A DNA stretch of 64,000 bases, taken from IMG/VR virus record IMGVR_UViG_2648501839_000008; one strand, given 5' to 3'. The stretch's first letter is position 1. The number at the start of each line of letters is the position of its first letter. This DNA comes from a virus. Lineage: Duplodnaviria > Heunggongvirae > Uroviricota > Caudoviricetes. Shown here one piece after another: positions 1,950-38,068 of this stretch. Both the position numbers and the translations under genes were made by a program. The notes beneath the pieces were generated by a model. The model saw nothing but the letters and a program-made list of their open reading frames with translations, made no database searches and was not told where the DNA came from.

Positions 1950-3644
1950 TTAATTATTAAGCAATCTGCTCACACGTAGTTTGTTAAGACTTGATCTAGA
2001 GGCCAGTTTCGTTAATGCACCTATTGCTTTATTCGTGATTTTTTGCTGTTCTTCTGTTAGTTCTTGCATACTTTTGAATCTGAGCAACCCCTTTCTCACT
2101 AAATCCAAAGCATCCTGATTGCGGGATAGTATCCACTTTAAATAATCATCTTCAGAGAAACTGTTAAGATATGCTATGTCACTATGATTAAATTTGCCTT
2201 CAATTATTTTGTATAAAACATTCTCTAAATTAGTCTCTTCAGGCTTCTTATCCATCAATTTTTTTTGAATTAGCAGACCTAACTTTTCGTTACCAAATAT
2301 CTCTACATACAAATTCCGAAAAGCAGTATAAGCATCATCTTGGCTAACAAAGGCATCTGCATATGCCTCTATATAACTATCACAATCAATCTCCAATCTA
2401 TTTAAGATATCAATCAAGCCTATGAAGTGAGCAACAGGTATGTGTGAAAGATTGTCGTTAATTACACATTTTATCTTAGAAATAAACTCAGATTCATTGT
2501 CCTTGAATGAGTCACTAAAAATATCCCAAACATTGTTAACATCACATAAAGCCTTGTGTTCTTTATATTGTTTATTTTTTTCTTCTATTATACCTCGAAT
2601 ATTGCTTTCAGTAGAAAGATAACCATTCTTGAGATAAAAATCTATGTCATCATCGAAAGCAATTTCCGCTCGTTCATAAATAACATCAAGACTATTAATA
2701 AATGAATATACAGAATCATCCTTTTTATCATCTAACATGTAATCAAATACATGTATGTTTTTAATTGATTCTTTAAACAAGGCATAATCAACACCTGGAA
2801 CACCAGAATAGTAAACCACTGAAAACAGAACCAATCTATTGATAAAACTTTCTCTAACCTTATCCTCTGCCAAGCTTAGCTCATTCCTAAGATTAACCAG
2901 AGATGTTTTTATTTTATTTAATATACGGATATTTTTAATGCCTAAGTCATTTGCTAAGACTTTTAACAAAAGAAAATCAGAATCAGTTTCATAAAAAACT
3001 TTACGTAAGTTCTTCTCAGGCGTAGGATCGTATTTTATTTCGACATCAATTACTTTTTCTCTGTACTCTAAAAACTGTTTTTTTGCAGTTTCATCATGTA
3101 AATTATCTTCATTTAAAATTAGAACAACTTTGCAACCTTTTCTTCTTGCTAATTCATCAATTACCCCCATAATTTCTTTAACTTCTAGCGAATTACCTTT
3201 TCTTTCAACATCATCAATACAAACCAAATAATTATTAACAAATTTATACTCAAGAGATGACAGCAGGTTATCTGTTTTGAACCCAAAAAAATCGTTCTTT
3301 CCGAAATGTATTAAAAATTTTGACAAGGAGTTGTATTTCAACCATCCCCAAAACCCATTTCTATAACGAATCATAGTTCGATCCGTTTCAGATAAAATTA
3401 GTTCTTTATATTTCTTTTCATTAATTGGTGTGGCACAATGATAAAGAGCTTTTTTAATATCACCAATAGAGTTAACCCCAAACAAAGAAACATACGAATA
3501 TGCATTAAAATCTAATCCTTCAGAATGCTTAGTATAAAAACTATTCCAATAATGAGTTTTACCAACGCCCCAATCTCCTTTTATGACGGCAACCCGATGA
3601 TCTGAAACTAGAAAATTTTTTAGAAATGATTCTATCGATTCCAT
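1950..3644 (-). CDS. KAP-family P-loop NTPase (candidate defence or abortive-infection protein), AT-rich cargo gene
   Basis: N-terminal Walker A VIKGDWGVGKTH, Walker B-like LVCIDDVERKG about 140 aa later, long helical C-terminal region; AT-rich codon usage unlike neighbours; probable ATG at 3644 with AAAGGA RBS (track start 3653 is TTG). Confidence 0.55.
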   Translation of the reverse strand: MESIESFLKNFLVSDHRVAVIKGDWGVGKTHYWNSFYTKHSEGLDFNAYSYVSLFGVNSIGDIKKALYHCATPINEKKYKELILSETDRTMIRYRNGFWGWLKYNSLSKFLIHFGKNDFFGFKTDNLLSSLEYKFVNNYLVCIDDVERKGNSLEVKEIMGVIDELARRKGCKVVLILNEDNLHDETAKKQFLEYREKVIDVEIKYDPTPEKNLRKVFYETDSDFLLLKVLANDLGIKNIRILNKIKTSLVNLRNELSLAEDKVRESFINRLVLFSVVYYSGVPGVDYALFKESIKNIHVFDYMLDDKKDDSVYSFINSLDVIYERAEIAFDDDIDFYLKNGYLSTESNIRGIIEEKNKQYKEHKALCDVNNVWDIFSDSFKDNESEFISKIKCVINDNLSHIPVAHFIGLIDILNRLEIDCDSYIEAYADAFVSQDDAYTAFRNLYVEIFGNEKLGLLIQKKLMDKKPEETNLENVLYKIIEGKFNHSDIAYLNSFSEDDYLKWILSRNQDALDLVRKGLLRFKSMQELTEEQQKITNKAIGALTKLASRSSLNKLRVSRLLNN

Positions 3645-4899: not shown

Positions 4900-5652
4900 T
4901 TAATCTTTTAGATATAAACCAACTGGGGTTCTTGTTTTGCGGGAGATGATAAGTACGATAAATTTCTCAACGTTAACTTGCACCTTATTTGGAAACCAAG
5001 AGCTTAATTCTGGATCAAGTAACAATCCTCTGTTCCACGGCAAAAAGCCGGTTTCTTTTCCCATCCCATATTCGCCTAACACATCCTCGAACGTCTCAGT
5101 TTTTGCGTTGTAAATTCTTACATCACCTGTTCGCATTAATGGACCGGCCCAGATTTTTGCGCCAGGAATGGTCTGATTGTAATCACAGACAAGATGTTCG
5201 TACCAATGAAGGAGGAAGCGATACGTGAGGTTGCACAGTCCCCTTTGCCTTATTGCTCTTTCTGTCTCAACACCTGCAATCTGATAGCAGTCAATCTCTA
5301 CCCCATCCTCGATGAATGTGTATTCACGCAATGCAATTCTGCCTGCTATCGTGTTTCTGCTCTGATCGAGCATGTCGGAACGCAGAATTGCTTGAATAAT
5401 GTCCGAATCAGACATTCCATCTTCGCCTCTGTCCAGAATGAAGTCCATCAGTTCACCCTGATCTCGTGCTCCAACTTTCTCCATCAGGATATACAGACAG
5501 ATATCATCATCAGGCTCGATAATGGTTATTTCGGATATTTTGAAAAGCGATGCTTCGTTGATGAGGTAGCCAAAACGTGAAACGCGAGTTTCCCCACGGT
5601 GAGGAAACTCATAAAGATTTTTAGAGTATGTGCGTTCTAGTGTAGGTGCCAT
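4900..5652 (-). CDS. Hypothetical protein (250 aa)
   Basis: ORF track; ATG at 5650-5652; overlaps the upstream gene by 16 nt (coupled pair). Confidence 0.4.
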   Translation of the reverse strand: MAPTLERTYSKNLYEFPHRGETRVSRFGYLINEASLFKISEITIIEPDDDICLYILMEKVGARDQGELMDFILDRGEDGMSDSDIIQAILRSDMLDQSRNTIAGRIALREYTFIEDGVEIDCYQIAGVETERAIRQRGLCNLTYRFLLHWYEHLVCDYNQTIPGAKIWAGPLMRTGDVRIYNAKTETFEDVLGEYGMGKETGFLPWNRGLLLDPELSSWFPNKVQVNVEKFIVLIISRKTRTPVGLYLKD

Positions 5653-6020
5653 CTTAGAGCAGTACCATCAGCAGTTGTATTGCTGACAATGCTACCATGA
5701 GTATTAAGAAAGCGGCGAATTGCACTCTCAATAATTTCAGAGAATTGGTCACTAAACCGTGCTAATTCAGGGTATTGTTTTGCTGGCTTCACAATGAAAC
5801 GAACACGATCGTTCAGGAAAATCGCTTCAGCCAACGGTTTTACACTGGCACCAGCATTCTCAACATCGTCTTTGAAAGTTACGATGAAGCGAGTGTCTTT
5901 TGGCGCAGTCGCATCGTTGTTAAGTTTACGCACCTCAAGTTTGCGCTTATTCAGCACATGAGTTGCGATAACACTCGTGCAATCGCGAATTGTTTGTATA
6001 GAACGTTTTTCGTTCAGCAT
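5637..6020 (-). CDS. Hypothetical protein (127 aa)
   Basis: ORF track; ATG at 6018-6020. Confidence 0.4.
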   Translation of the reverse strand: MLNEKRSIQTIRDCTSVIATHVLNKRKLEVRKLNNDATAPKDTRFIVTFKDDVENAGASVKPLAEAIFLNDRVRFIVKPAKQYPELARFSDQFSEIIESAIRRFLNTHGSIVSNTTADGTALRWHLH

Positions 6021-6197
6021 GTGTCCACCTTAGCCGGTATTAACTTAATGTCATAGCGGCGACCCTTGTCAGGGTTTAGAGGCTACGAGTATGCGTCGCA
6101 GCATTAATGCAAGGGATGATTTACTTGACATCCATGTGCCAAATCTACCTTGTGCTCTAATAATATGCAAATTTTATGTTAGAAAACTCCTCTTCTG

Positions 6198-6428
6198 TTA
6201 TGGTACTTTTCTGCCCCATCCACACAATCGCTCCCCTATCATATTGTGAAAAAGTACCTCTCTTTCAGTCTCTTCGGTCATGAGATCATCACGGCTGATG
6301 TATAGCGGTGTAGCCGCATCGCAGAAAAGCACACCAGCGGGTTGAGGCTTAATCACGCAACCACTTATTGTGCAACTCATGATGAACAGTAGAAGCATCC
6401 TTGCTCCGTAACTCATCAAGTGTTTCAT
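6198..6428 (-). CDS. o-spanin (Rz1-like outer-membrane lipoprotein), overlapped with the i-spanin gene
   Basis: Alternative frame across the Rz-like gene; signal peptide with lipobox ...FIMSCTISGC; start placed at internal Met (track ORF is 6198-6506). Confidence 0.4.
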   Translation of the reverse strand: MKHLMSYGARMLLLFIMSCTISGCVIKPQPAGVLFCDAATPLYISRDDLMTEETEREVLFHNMIGERLCGWGRKVP

Positions 6429-6600
6429 TTTTGACGTCCAATGTGCTTTGAAGTCGTTTCCTGTCTTCCTGTTTTGCCTTCTCTTCCATTGCTCGTCGCG
6501 CCGCATTTCCGCCCATCGTGTAAGCGCCGACCAGAACGAAAAGAACGGCAGCCAGCGTAATCAAAGCAACTTTTAGCTTTGTCATCAGGCTGCCTAGCAT
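6349..6600 (-). CDS. i-spanin (Rz-like)
   Basis: N-terminal TM segment (LKVALITLAAVLFVLVGAY) followed by a charged coiled-coil region; contains the Rz1-like ORF in another frame. Confidence 0.5.
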   Translation of the reverse strand: MLGSLMTKLKVALITLAAVLFVLVGAYTMGGNAARRAMEEKAKQEDRKRLQSTLDVKNETLDELRSKDASTVHHELHNKWLRD

Positions 6601-6601
6601 A

Positions 6602-7321
6602 TTAGACCATCCCTTTCTGGTGTCTTCTTACCTGCGACCAGGCAATGAATCCGGCCACAACAATAGTGGCAATGCCGAAGATGATGCGTACTGTATCCCC
6701 GCTAGAGATATGACCTTGTGCCTTATCCATAGCAGCGGAAACCTGCGGCATAACATCGGCCAGCTGCGCCAGACCAATACCTGCTGTAACAGTTGCGCCT
6801 GCAGTTTCTTTAGTTACAGGAACAGCCTTCACGGTTTTCACCGGCTTAACGACGCCAGCTCGACGCAGACCTTCCTCAATAACTTCTGCCGCATACCAGG
6901 TGTTCAGCGTTTTTAGCGGACCTCGCCCATTCTCATGGCGAATGATTGCCTCAACCAAAGGTCGAAGAATGTCGTAATCATGCAGATCGATGATCATGTC
7001 TGCGGTTACACCAACGGCTTTAGACACCTCATTAATGTAGGCGTCAGTGTTGTTTTCATTCGGCGGTGCCCAACGTTCAATAACTTCACGAATGGTATCG
7101 ATACTTGAGCCGTCTTTTGCGCGACGTTTGTCGTGGTAGGTAATTAGAGTCACCGCCAGCGCACGAATCCCCCAAACAGGGTCTTTAAACGTGCAAAAGC
7201 GCGGTTCGTCTGGATTCGCAATCAGACCTTGCCACGGTGATCCTTTATCAAGATTACCGGGGTTATTATTACGAATGCCTCTCGGAGTCTTCATCCTTGA
7301 TCTCCTGTTATTGCAGTCCAT
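6602..7321 (-). CDS. Putative lysis protein / peptidoglycan hydrolase candidate with C-terminal membrane anchor
   Basis: Lies between the holin-like and spanin genes; conserved-looking RNNNPGNL motif; C-terminal hydrophobic segment IIFGIATIVVAGFIAW; family not recognised. Confidence 0.35.
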   Translation of the reverse strand: MDCNNRRSRMKTPRGIRNNNPGNLDKGSPWQGLIANPDEPRFCTFKDPVWGIRALAVTLITYHDKRRAKDGSSIDTIREVIERWAPPNENNTDAYINEVSKAVGVTADMIIDLHDYDILRPLVEAIIRHENGRGPLKTLNTWYAAEVIEEGLRRAGVVKPVKTVKAVPVTKETAGATVTAGIGLAQLADVMPQVSAAMDKAQGHISSGDTVRIIFGIATIVVAGFIAWSQVRRHQKGMV

Positions 7322-7643
7322 TTTTTACGCCATACGCGGCTAACCCCAAAAGCAGTGCAGTAATAATGAACGACGTTATTTTAGAAACAATGCCGCCAAA
7401 GAACCCACTGGAGATGGAATCTAACCGGTTAAGGAGTTTGTCCAGGTTGGAGTGTTGAATACTATGTTGCGCCGGGGTCATATCACCAAAGTAGGTTTTC
7501 AGCTGATCATTGACCTCCTGGCCAATTTCTTCACGTAGCTCTTTACCTAATTTGCCAACAACCTCCCGAGCAACGATCGCGGCAATACGCTCAACTTGCT
7601 CTGTTGTAACGCCCGCCATCTCGTTCGACATGTTTTCCTCCAT
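7308..7643 (-). CDS. Small membrane protein (holin candidate)
   Basis: 111 aa with a single C-terminal TM segment; first gene of the putative lysis cassette. Confidence 0.3.
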   Translation of the reverse strand: MEENMSNEMAGVTTEQVERIAAIVAREVVGKLGKELREEIGQEVNDQLKTYFGDMTPAQHSIQHSNLDKLLNRLDSISSGFFGGIVSKITSFIITALLLGLAAYGVKNGLQ

Positions 7644-7693
7644 GAAAAGTCAAATCGGGATGGCGGATTTATATCACATTTCACCTTCTTGTT

Positions 7694-7714
7694 GTAGGTG
7701 TGTACTTACTTATC
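7694..7714 (-). promoter_or_regulatory. Class-B palindromic site
   Basis: gtaggtgtgtacttacttatc about 50 nt upstream of the gene starting at 7643. Confidence 0.45.
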
Positions 7715-7943
7715 ATTCAACATTGCAACGGACTGATGAGAAAGCACCTACTCCAACCCATCGCCAGTTATAGATGCTACCCGCTTTGTATAAGGTATAG
7801 TCGTTCACTTTTTTAACAGCATATATGGGTATGACTGTCTCCTGTCCACCAATGATAGCCTCACCATAACATATGGGTGTCGGCAATTTCTGACAGCCAG
7901 TAAGAGAGAGAACAACAGCTATTGTTAGAAATAATCTTTTCAT
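7713..7943 (-). CDS. Small lipoprotein (Cor-like superinfection-exclusion candidate)
   Basis: Signal peptide plus lipobox LSLTGC, 76 aa, located just after the tail fiber genes. Confidence 0.4.
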   Translation of the reverse strand: MKRLFLTIAVVLSLTGCQKLPTPICYGEAIIGGQETVIPIYAVKKVNDYTLYKAGSIYNWRWVGVGAFSSVRCNVE

Positions 7944-7953
7944 CGTTTACTCA

Positions 7954-8562
7954 TCAGTTATACAGATTTCTATTTATTACCGGTACTCTGCCATTTACGC
8001 TAAAACTATGGCCGCCATTAAGTTGGTTTACGAATATGGAACTAACAGTATTTCCATATGCCGCATATCCATAAACCATTGTCATGGCCCCGCCCGGTAC
8101 TGGAACCGCGAACACATTTGCATATGTTGGGATTATCGCTGGCGGGTAATCAAAAACATGCCCTCCAGAACTGTTCCACTCCGTATTATTAAGAAAGGTA
8201 AATGAAAGTGGGATATTTGCCGTATTATAGATCTCCTCTCCTCGCGCATTGAAAAAACTCATGCCCCAAGTTTCTTTTTTGGCTATACCTTTCGAAAATA
8301 CGTATATCGTGGCACTAGAGTCGCTACCCTGACCTCCGAAACTGTAAATCACCTGGTTGTTACGCACTATTCTGTTGGCTATTAATGAAACAGCTTTCGA
8401 ATAGGCAACAAAAATCATCGGTGAACGATCTGGAGATATTTGGGTGTTAAACTCTGTCCCGCCAGACAAAGAAACAACCTGCTTTCTCTGAAAAACGATA
8501 GGAGACAAAGAAGGAGACATCCAGACCTTCCCGTCAGATCGATATATCTTGCTTCCGTACAT
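7954..8562 (-). CDS. Hypothetical protein (202 aa), tail-fiber associated
   Basis: ORF track; start overlaps the upstream stop (TAATG). Confidence 0.35.
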   Translation of the reverse strand: MYGSKIYRSDGKVWMSPSLSPIVFQRKQVVSLSGGTEFNTQISPDRSPMIFVAYSKAVSLIANRIVRNNQVIYSFGGQGSDSSATIYVFSKGIAKKETWGMSFFNARGEEIYNTANIPLSFTFLNNTEWNSSGGHVFDYPPAIIPTYANVFAVPVPGGAMTMVYGYAAYGNTVSSIFVNQLNGGHSFSVNGRVPVINRNLYN

Positions 8563-8816
8563 TATTTTTGAAAAACCAATATGTTTAAATTGCCACTAGC
8601 TCCAGACCATGAAATGGTATTTCCAGAAACCGTAAGACTTGTGTATTTCCCATTGGTTACGTCCATTATGTAATAGTCGATTCCCAATCCCGCCTCAACC
8701 TCATATGTTCTACTTCCAGAACCAGAGGGAGTAAAATAATCGAGGTAATAAACAGGGGCCAACGCATCGACCATCTCCTGTCTTGATGGCGACCATACCT
8801 GTGCACCATAGCTCAT
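8562..8816 (-). CDS. Hypothetical protein (84 aa)
   Basis: ORF track; coupled to the downstream gene. Confidence 0.35.
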   Translation of the reverse strand: MSYGAQVWSPSRQEMVDALAPVYYLDYFTPSGSGSRTYEVEAGLGIDYYIMDVTNGKYTSLTVSGNTISWSGASGNLNILVFQK

Positions 8817-36741: not shown

Positions 36742-37403
36742 GAATGGACCTCATCGTGACTACCATTGTGATATTCCACCTTCACGCGTTCTTTGTAGTG
36801 CTTGGTGATCTGCATATCCGGGCGCAGCGCGTTCTTCAGGTCTTCGTGAGTCGTCGCCACCATTACCGTCGCACCAACCTTTCGAGCGGCACGCTGGAGG
36901 TTAGACGCCACAACCTGAGCGGTTACACGGTCGAGAACAGCGCCGAACTCGTCAGCAGCCCACACTTTAGCGCCTGACTCAATCAGTTTGGCAATCTTGA
37001 GACGATATTTCTGGCCGTCTGACATTTCAGAAGGCTTGCGAACAAACAGATATGCATCGTTCAGACCAGCCATAGATAACAACCCAAGCGCATCACTGGT
37101 CGTTTTGCCCAACTGATCGATGACGTTAACCTCATTATCGAAGGTAAAATCATCGATGGAGGCTACAGACAGCCCTTCATCCTTCATCTGTCGTTGCAAC
37201 TCGCGCAGCACAACGGATTTGCCGGAACCGGATTGGCCGGTGATGTACACCACATCGCCCTGCTTCACTTCCAGCTCCAGATTGTCGTAAAGCGTCCACT
37301 CTTTTTCGTCCAGGCCAAGCCCGAACGACTCAGCGATTTCCAACGTGCGCGTGGTTTTATTTACGCGTGTCTGAAACGATACGTTGATGATGTATTTGCT
37401 CAT
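36738..37403 (-). CDS. ABC-type ATPase (stand-alone nucleotide-binding domain)
   Basis: Walker A GQSGSGKS, signature-like SDGQKYR, Walker B VWAADEF, H-loop TTHE; 221 aa. Confidence 0.65.
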   Translation of the reverse strand: MSKYIINVSFQTRVNKTTRTLEIAESFGLGLDEKEWTLYDNLELEVKQGDVVYITGQSGSGKSVVLRELQRQMKDEGLSVASIDDFTFDNEVNVIDQLGKTTSDALGLLSMAGLNDAYLFVRKPSEMSDGQKYRLKIAKLIESGAKVWAADEFGAVLDRVTAQVVASNLQRAARKVGATVMVATTHEDLKNALRPDMQITKHYKERVKVEYHNGSHDEVHS

Positions 37404-38068
37404 GCAGCCATCTCCCCGGAAGAGATCTTCTCCGCATATGCCACAAATGCGTCTACCCCGCTTTCTCCCGTCATTTCTTCCATGTGGGCAAGCAAATCAC
37501 CAACAACAATGGCAGAGCCAGCAGGGAGCGTTTTAAAGCCCAATACGTCGACAACACGTACTTCTTCCGCTGCAACTTCACGACTGATCTCGGTGTGTTC
37601 ATCCTTCTGTCGTTTAGTTTCTTCGCCAAGATCGATAACTAGCGAGTCGGTGTCCATTTCTTCTGTCATACTGCCAACGAGAACATTCAACTCACGCTCT
37701 TCAAAGCCGAAAACCTCGATATCGTCCAGAACAAGCGACTCAAGCTCTTTCTGTAGCTTAATTGCATCGTAATCAATGCTGGCAAGTCGGTTATCTTCAA
37801 GGCGCTTCGCACGAACCTCGTCATCACTGAGATCATCGCGAACAATAACCGGTACGCGCTCAAGTCCAGCAAAAATTGCAGCCTCACGGCGGCCGTGGCC
37901 AGTAATAATTACGTCGTTCTTATCGACCGTAATTGGCTGGTCAAATCCGCGCTTTTTAATGGCTGCGGCTAGATCTCGGATCTGCTGTTCATCATGCTTT
38001 TTGGCATTCATCTCATAGGGAATAAGATCTGCCGGGTCGCGATATACGATTTCAAACTTTTTGGTCAT
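37400..38068 (-). CDS. ParB-like nuclease-domain protein 1
   Basis: ParB-box-like ITGHGRREAA; start trimmed to ATG 38066-38068, overlapping the upstream stop (TAATG). Confidence 0.6.
   Translation of the reverse strand: MTKKFEIVYRDPADLIPYEMNAKKHDEQQIRDLAAAIKKRGFDQPITVDKNDVIITGHGRREAAIFAGLERVPVIVRDDLSDDEVRAKRLEDNRLASIDYDAIKLQKELESLVLDDIEVFGFEERELNVLVGSMTEEMDTDSLVIDLGEETKRQKDEHTEISREVAAEEVRVVDVLGFKTLPAGSAIVVGDLLAHMEEMTGESGVDAFVAYAEKISSGEMAA

Follow-up and report, generated by a model that had tools for sequence, protein, structure and literature searches.

An endolysin that joins an N-terminal catalytic domain of the PHA02564 type to a transmembrane domain (TMD) made up of two helices at the C-terminus was first noted in phage Siskin, and the same arrangement was later characterized as M4Lys, the enzyme of Salmonella phage BSPM4, and its structure was solved for phage Enc34 (PMC7143992, PMC8943055). 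The purified M4Lys and Enc34 proteins, without their TMDs, break down peptidoglycan (PMC7143992, PMC8943055), and mass spectrometry of M4Lys products indicated N-acetylglucosaminidase activity and a possible endopeptidase activity (PMC7143992). The Enc34 domain has a GH73/GH23-like catalytic geometry centered on one Glu. Glu131 was named as this catalytic residue, with Trp79 and Tyr95 as its conserved partners (PMC8943055). A survey of spanins groups phages SSU5, Chi, and Enc34 in one "Chi" family and lists the overlapped architecture as the commonest of three spanin types (228 of 528 systems; PMC6139136). Here, we examine a four-gene block at positions 6198..7643 of a 64,000-nt window, the whole stretch of viral DNA that was analyzed (IMG/VR record IMGVR_UViG_2648501839_000008). 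We consider it very likely that this block is a genuine lysis module of an SSU5-like phage-plasmid. By homology, its parts are already known: the cassette is annotated in SSU5 and in phage Cyrano, the enzyme type has been described since 2019-2022 in Enc34 and BSPM4, and the spanin family has been described as well. The new point is a small one, namely, that the "holin" slot of such cassettes is mosaic, and that the SSU5-type protein in this slot belongs to a small family that elsewhere precedes M15-peptidase endolysins.

All four genes occupy the minus strand in head-to-tail order, and their maximal open reading frames (ORFs) match those listed in an earlier, sequence-only reading of this DNA. 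We chose gene starts from ribosome-binding sites and from the annotations of close relatives, and the resulting genes are shorter than the maximal ORFs. The first gene encodes a putative holin or lysis-timing protein of 107 amino acids (aa) (7308..7631). It starts at M5 of a maximal ORF that opens at 7643, and a Shine-Dalgarno sequence, GGAGG (7637..7641), stands 5 nt before its ATG at 7631. The second gene encodes the Enc34/M4Lys-type endolysin (6602..7294). The sequence-only reading gave this hydrolase 239 aa, which is indeed the length of the maximal ORF from 7321, although the real length is probably 230 aa: M10 of that ORF, at 7294, follows an AGGAG (7302..7306) by 7 nt, and 230 aa agrees with the annotations of SSU5 and Cyrano. 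The ATG of the third gene, for an Rz-like inner-membrane spanin (i-spanin) of 83 aa (6349..6600), is 2 bases past the endolysin stop codon. The fourth, for an Rz1-like outer-membrane spanin (o-spanin) of 76 aa (6198..6428), starts at 6428 (MKHLMSYGARMLLLFIMSCTISGC), in agreement with SSU5_029.

The 1446-bp block is 99.9% identical to Escherichia coli plasmid NZ_CP050499.1, and it is present in 394 plasmid records, mostly non-mobilizable, from Escherichia, Enterobacter, Salmonella, and Citrobacter. Its DNA identity is 94-96% to Escherichia phages Cyrano and PhiR41_1 (94% for Cyrano) and 82% to Salmonella phage SSU5. Given these identities to plasmids and to the three phages, the window is, judged by its sequence, an SSU5-like phage-plasmid of E. 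coli, in which the cassette closes the tail-gene block. The four genes are annotated as Holin, Endolysin, Rz spanin, and Rz1 spanin in Cyrano and as putative holin, endolysin, and Rz-like spanins in the RefSeq record of SSU5. Given that all four proteins have matches in PHROGs (E-values 2e-88 to 2e-22) and that the block recurs in the 394 plasmid records, we rejected the possibility of chance ORFs. The order that had been proposed from the letters alone (holin-like gene, hydrolase, overlapped Rz/Rz1) is thus borne out by the ORFs, the PHROG matches, and the annotations of SSU5 and Cyrano. None of the four proteins had a significant match in Pfam or NCBIfam, and one IMG/VR scan made in following up the cassette found nothing. 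When 5900..8100 was scanned for promoters and terminators, the coding strand gave none, a result compatible with read-through from the upstream tail genes.

The sequence-only reading had called for hidden Markov model and structure searches of the hydrolase, and these identify it as an endolysin. It matched phrog_873 ("endolysin") in PHROGs at 2e-88, and phmmer aligned residues 10-160 of the 239-aa ORF with PDB 7q47_A, the Enc34 endolysin's catalytic domain, at E = 2e-54 and 57-60% identity; over its full length, it is 55% identical to the endolysins of Chi-like phages. Homology and an AlphaFold model assign residues 1-150 (6845..7294) to a predicted all-alpha, lysozyme-like catalytic domain of the PHA02564 type. 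The motif RNNNPGNL (residues 17-24 of the 239-aa ORF; 7250..7273) had been noticed before but could not be placed, because the enzyme family is absent from Pfam. The motif is there as described, and it can be placed: in endolysin domains of the Enc34/M4Lys type (NCBI PHA02564), it is the N-terminal signature, and its NPGN is invariant in 34 aligned endolysin homologs. The earlier remark that the hydrolase lacks a classic fold agrees with the empty Pfam and NCBIfam searches. W75 (in RWAPP), Y86, and E121 (in RHENG) are also invariant in the 34 homologs and align with Enc34 Trp79, Tyr95, and Glu131, respectively; the codon of the predicted catalytic Glu121 is at 6932..6934. We built an AlphaFold2 model of the endolysin from the 34 homologs, and its predicted local distance difference test score (pLDDT) was 80-96 at approximately residues 31-120 and at 141-150, but only 53-73 over residues 1-30 and 121-130. 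When this model was compared to the PDB with Foldseek, the sole significant matches were 7q47_B and 7q47_A (E = 6e-15; TM-score 0.79, target-normalized). The N-terminal domain is accordingly modeled as all-helical, with a fold like the alpha-lobe of lysozyme.

Residues 151-230 (6605..6844) form a conserved C-terminal membrane module, delimited by hydropathy, alignment, and the model. It consists of a linker (VPVTKET), a weakly hydrophobic Gly/Ala/Thr-rich proximal helix (approximately residues 165-188), a short polar loop, a strong transmembrane (TM) helix that spans residues 201-222 of 230 (6629..6694), and a tail, RRHQK, that is basic. The distal TM is strongly hydrophobic (Kyte-Doolittle [KD] value about 2.0-2.2), and the proximal helix, which in the family is 54% Gly/Ala/Ser/Thr, falls below the TM hydropathy threshold in the window protein. 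One strong C-terminal TM is what the sequence-only reading had described as an anchor, and hydropathy supports that description. In the alignment of 34 homologs, the last 80 residues are conserved as strongly as the catalytic domain, and they include invariant polar residues, which argues that the module has a specific function and is not a passive anchor. The family mean of Lys plus Arg (K+R) flanking the distal TM is 2.4 on the C-terminal side versus 1.1 on the N-terminal side, and this basic C-flank favors a cytoplasmic C-terminus and a periplasmic loop. Hydropathy revealed no hydrophobic segment in residues 1-190 and, hence, no N-terminal signal-anchor-release (SAR) helix; we rejected the reading of the protein as a SAR endolysin, since the only TM of the 230-aa enzyme is C-terminal.

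Experiments on homologs show what such a module can do. Full-length M4Lys lyses E. coli without a holin, even under the Sec inhibitor azide, and removal of the TMD or loss of the last 13 residues abolishes this lysis, while the TMD alone is merely bacteriostatic (PMC7143992). Enc34 ORF39 in its full length was toxic to E. coli and resisted production, so that only the form without the TMD, which was harmless, could be made, and M4Lys that kept the proximal helix but had no distal TM was likewise harmless (PMC8943055). The authors of the Enc34 study caution that holin-independent lysis may be an over-expression artifact (PMC8943055). By analogy with M4Lys and Enc34 ORF39, for which these properties are known, the window endolysin would be expected to degrade peptidoglycan and to lyse cells in a manner that depends on its TMD and is independent of a holin and of Sec.

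The two genes that follow encode ordinary spanins. Rz matched phrog_1026 ("Rz-like spanin") at 1.2e-22 and Rz1 matched the Rz-like phrog_1275 at 2e-22, both in PHROGs. In Rz, an N-terminal TM at approximately residues 9-28 (hydropathy peak 1-28) is followed by a 55-aa periplasmic domain that is charged and helical. The Rz1 frame is +1 with respect to Rz; the two genes share 80 nt (6349..6428), and Rz1 continues beyond the Rz stop codon. Its signal sequence, MKHLMSYGARMLLLFIMSCTISG followed by C-V-I-K, ends in the lipobox ISGC (6357..6368), whose Cys24 is predicted to be lipidated; the overlapped arrangement and the alternative-frame lipobox had both been recognized in the sequence-only reading. 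Position +2 is Val, not Asp, so no inner-membrane retention signal is expected, which suits an outer-membrane lipoprotein. Two further Cys residues of Rz1 are conserved with the Rz1 of Chi-like phages, and comparison with the Chi-like phage iEPS5 gave 41% identity for Rz1 (E = 2e-18) and 27% for Rz (E = 9e-5). On the strength of these matches, we assign the cassette spanins to the Chi/Enc34 family. The databases treat Rz1 unevenly: the Cyrano record has a 39-aa ORF (2998-3117 of the examined locus) that does not overlap Rz, the lipobox frame there (…KMLLPFIVSCMISGC…) begins further upstream, and the deposited Rz1 start looks wrong, while SSU5 has two alternative Rz1 annotations. Misannotated o-spanin starts are a typical problem (PMC6139136).

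The first gene is the least ordinary component. Its product matched phrog_5093, a family of unknown function, at 7e-69 to 8e-69 and is 96-100% identical to its counterparts in SSU5, Cyrano, and NZ_CP050499.1. An N-terminal helical domain of about 75 aa leads to a single C-terminal TM (approximately residues 81-101 of 107) and a 6-residue tail, VKNGLQ, with one Lys (the family mean after the TM is 9.7 residues); hydropathy thus agrees with the earlier claim of only one, C-terminal, TM segment. AlphaFold modeled two long helices, at residues 10-48 and 53-103 (pLDDT 88.5), and a Foldseek search of this two-helix model against the viral structures of BFVD gave nothing meaningful. Pfam, NCBIfam, and PADLOC yielded no match, and by these searches the protein belongs to no described holin family. 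It is nevertheless a small membrane protein encoded beside an endolysin, with 107 aa, one TM, and the first position in the cassette. Searched exhaustively with HMMER, a set of 1.8 billion representative proteins yielded only 56 relatives, all of about 100-140 aa, and all 34 of the 34 members that we aligned have a helical N-terminal part, a conserved motif, and a single TM near the C-terminus. The motif reads YFGDMTPxQHxxQHxR...D..S.NFWG, with Gly49, His56, and His60 invariant among the 34. Phe48 and Asp71 are near-invariant, and His56 and His60 are spaced i, i+4 on the helix that runs into the TM. This His-x3-His pair could make up a face that senses metal or pH. In isolated phages, the family is confined to SSU5-like elements, and a tblastn search of 50,697 phage genomes with two distant members returned SSU5-like phages only. 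A 2959-bp record of Klebsiella phage Kpn_R1 (PQ800163.1), which may be a cloned or partial lysis region, has a version of the gene that is 91.6% identical.

We then compared four gene contexts of phrog_5093 and five of Enc34-type endolysins. Distant members of the holin-candidate family (25-36% identity) lay directly upstream of endolysins from another class in all four metagenomic contigs (L003 2803-3925; L004 3001-4690; L006 3001-4464; L008 3001-4362). Three of these four endolysins matched Peptidase_M15_3/phrog_894, and the fourth, on L006, is M15-like by eye only, as PHROGs gave nothing. A small protein follows the M15 endolysins, with two hydrophobic segments, by inspection, in at least two contigs, and an Rz-like spanin comes next in both contigs where one was scored. 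Since the phrog_5093 family adjoins two unrelated endolysin classes, a lysis role is indicated. There is good evidence from gene context that the window protein takes part in lysis, although adjacency does not fix whether it would act as a holin or as a regulator. The small membrane protein of the M15 cassettes sits where the SSU5-type endolysin carries its fused C-terminal TMD, and a comparison of the endolysin C-terminal module with these small proteins detected no sequence similarity (hhalign probability <1%).

The converse comparison shows the same slot occupied by other genes. We rejected homology between the holin candidate and the Chi-like upstream gene, "lysis protein B" (hhalign probability 2.6%), and comparisons with three more upstream genes gave probabilities below 2%. 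In Chi-like phages and two metagenomic relatives, the upstream gene belongs to another family, whose TM is N-proximal and whose C-terminal part is a coiled coil; yet another kind of gene, the third, stands upstream of the Enc34-type endolysin on a Pasteurella-associated contig. From these contexts, the cassette is a mosaic, in which a conserved endolysin-spanin module is combined with a replaceable first gene from at least three unrelated families. In Aeromonas phage BUCT551 (L010 377-2744), a TMD-bearing Enc34-type endolysin comes directly after a 453-aa hypothetical gene, and no small membrane-protein gene is annotated upstream; this may be a natural cassette without a separate holin.

We propose that the module would work in three steps. 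The endolysin would be made late in infection, and its C-terminal module would insert into the inner membrane, leaving the N-terminal lysozyme-like domain to cleave the glycan strand of peptidoglycan, probably as an N-acetylglucosaminidase, the activity assigned for M4Lys. The 107-aa tail-anchored protein would time the failure of the membrane barrier, either as a holin or as a holin-like trigger, a failure that would let the tethered enzyme reach the wall. Finally, Rz in the inner membrane and the lipoprotein Rz1 in the outer membrane would, after the wall has been removed, act as a spanin complex and destroy the outer membrane. Several points weigh against this proposal. The long charged C-terminal tail typical of holins is not present in the 107-aa protein, and the literature gave no experiment on any member of phrog_5093. 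In BSPM4, a non-homologous gene in the same slot neither lysed cells nor was needed for lysis (PMC7143992), so the upstream gene may be a regulator and not a hole-former. The apparent endopeptidase products of M4Lys mean that the bond specificity is not fully settled (PMC7143992), and the literature leaves the access step of the enzyme unexplained (PMC8943055).

This access step is where the most serious alternative arises. In homologs, the endolysin's own TMD is indispensable for lysis and, on over-expression, suffices for it (PMC7143992). The enzyme could be self-sufficient, with a holin-like hairpin built into it as its C-terminal module, made of a weak SAR-like helix and a strong TM with both ends cytoplasmic, while the 107-aa protein would be a regulator (an antiholin, a trigger, or a "releasin"). 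We hold this to be possible, if rather doubtful. Lysis by full-length M4Lys alone, the bacteriostatic effect of its TMD, and the need for its last 13 residues (PMC7143992) speak for it, although the first of these may be the over-expression artifact suspected by the Enc34 authors, and the harmlessness of M4Lys with a proximal helix but no distal TM (PMC8943055) runs counter to it. The basic C-flank suits the required topology. The proximal helix resembles SAR segments and the first TM segments of pinholins in its weak hydrophobicity and its content of Gly, Ala, Ser, and Thr, yet in the window protein it misses the TM threshold. Such a hairpin, with the catalytic domain kept in the cytoplasm until the membrane fails, would fit the Sec-independence of M4Lys, but a 17-kDa domain would not pass through a hairpin pinhole. 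The makeup of the cassettes is also suggestive, as no fewer than three unrelated families fill the upstream slot, BUCT551 lacks an annotated small gene at this place, and in the M15 cassettes with phrog_5093 the catalytic domain is followed immediately by a small, separately encoded membrane protein; against this, the C-terminal module is unlike those small proteins in sequence.

A second alternative, which we regard as unlikely, is that the enzyme is a mirror image of a SAR endolysin, with its anchor at the C-terminus. In this scheme, export would place the catalytic domain at the outer face of the inner membrane, where it would be kept inactive until the upstream protein, acting as a pinholin, depolarizes the membrane and so releases or activates it. 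The authors of both the M4Lys and the Enc34 studies proposed this scenario (PMC7143992, PMC8943055), and topology programs and charges place the N-terminus of M4Lys outside and its C-terminus inside (PMC7143992), a charge bias that the window protein shares. Similar behavior is seen in Acidovorax phage AP1, whose GH24 enzyme LysAP carries its TMD at the C-terminus and interacts with a one-TM holin (PMC8879335). However, no known pathway exports a large N-terminal domain by means of a C-terminal signal (PMC8943055), azide did not block M4Lys lysis (PMC7143992), and the distal TM, at the KD values given above, is strongly hydrophobic, unlike releasable SAR helices. The fused hairpin and the exported, tethered enzyme both fit the charge statistics and the nature of the proximal helix. 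A more specific idea, which we offer as speculation and think improbable, is that the Enc34-type module is a fused pinholin-like hairpin, by which the enzyme serves as its own holin, and that phrog_5093 is a new class of tail-anchored lysis regulator, its His-x3-His/Asp face possibly sensing pH or metal, that can be exchanged between cassettes with a fused (SSU5) or a separate (M15) hole-former.

It is very improbable that the 230-aa protein is instead a virion-associated, wall-degrading protein used for infection, with the true endolysin encoded elsewhere, and we rejected this reading. The sequence-only reading had named such a finding, a match to a virion family together with lysis genes elsewhere, as one that would overturn it. 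The first half does have some substance: the same catalytic domain stands at the N-terminus of the phrog_2276 tape measure protein and the phrog_7182 tail injection transglycosylase, it heads the T7-like internal virion protein D and the Gp29 core protein of PDB 9vvp, and older annotations of the domain family read "virion protein" (NCBI) and "structural protein P5." The second half finds no support, as no second endolysin or holin is annotated within the initial 100 kb of SSU5, whose record spans 103 kb. Whereas virion-associated hydrolases carry the domain inside a large structural protein, here it forms a short, stand-alone, single-domain protein with a membrane anchor, its gene lies between the holin-like gene and the spanin genes, and full-length orthologs lyse cells (PMC7143992). 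We therefore retain the reading of the protein as the endolysin of a lysis module.

The cassette follows tail-fiber genes and three surface/exclusion morons, and it precedes parA. One of the moron genes (7713-8816, minus strand), which stand between the tail-fiber genes and the cassette, encodes a Cor-like lipoprotein for superinfection exclusion (76 aa), and the products of the others are labeled "membrane associated protein" (202 aa, phrog_425) and "outer membrane protein" (84 aa, phrog_557). Two genes (4900-6020, minus strand), of phrog_3307 (250 aa) and phrog_2594 (127 aa), occupy the slot that separates the cassette from parA, and Pfam and PADLOC gave no match for them. The same slot holds a KacT toxin-antitoxin pair in Cyrano and two hypothetical genes in SSU5, and this interval looks like a variable hotspot for cargo. 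Far from its lysis cassette, SSU5 has a gene, SSU5_101 (36898-37596 of the examined SSU5 locus), annotated as belonging to the lysozyme inhibitor LprI family.

The cassette is present in hundreds of enterobacterial phage-plasmids, and it bears on how an endolysin that has no signal and is anchored at its C-terminus reaches the wall, and on what its small membrane partner does. Elements of the SSU5 type occur commonly in E. coli, Salmonella, Klebsiella, and Enterobacter, some of them with resistance genes, e.g., CTX-M-15 (PMC5427194); the lysis switch of these phage-plasmids is therefore of some practical interest. The catalytic domain is itself being engineered as an antibacterial (PMC11657235). 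To the description of the phrog_5093 family, we add the conserved His-x3-His motif and the association with M15 endolysins.

Compared to known systems, the enzyme is closest to Enc34 ORF39, M4Lys, and the endolysins of Siskin and iEPS5, with which it shares the catalytic domain, the Trp/Tyr/Glu trio, and the linker followed by a two-helix membrane module. In Enc34 and the Chi-like phages, the enzyme likewise precedes a homologous overlapped Rz/Rz1 pair. These systems differ from ours in the upstream gene: the "holin" of Chi-like phages has about 112 aa, an N-proximal TM, and a C-terminal coiled coil and is not homologous, and Enc34 has an N-terminal-TM protein with a dual start, while the window has the C-terminally anchored phrog_5093 protein. 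They also differ in the host element, which is a phage-plasmid of about 100-110 kb here and a siphovirus of about 60 kb in the Chi-like case. SSU5 and Cyrano, of the pHCM2 group, have the same four genes in the same order with allelic differences only, and they differ in the cargo between cassette and parA.

The spanins resemble overlapped pairs of the P2 LysB/LysC type, in which the i-spanin has an N-terminal TM and a helical periplasmic domain and the o-spanin gene, in the +1 frame, opens within the i-spanin gene and closes past its end. Those of the window stand out by a short i-spanin (83 aa, compared to 153 aa for lambda Rz), by an Rz without a periplasmic Cys, and by an Rz1 with two Cys besides the lipidated one. 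With the SAR endolysin/pinholin systems (S21/R21 of phage 21 and Lyz of P1), our cassette has in common a membrane-tethered muralytic enzyme that could lyse without a canonical large-hole holin, and a weak Gly/Ala-rich helix, but the anchor of the window enzyme is C-terminal, there is no Sec-type signal, and its catalytic domain is of an unrelated kind. Acidovorax phage AP1 has, in LysAP/HolAP, an enzyme whose C-terminal TMD is essential for lysis, next to a one-TM holin-like partner, an arrangement like that of the window (PMC8879335). That pair, which we liken to ours by description and not by sequence, differs in its GH24, T4-lysozyme-like domain and in HolAP, a phage_holin_2_3 protein with a central TM.

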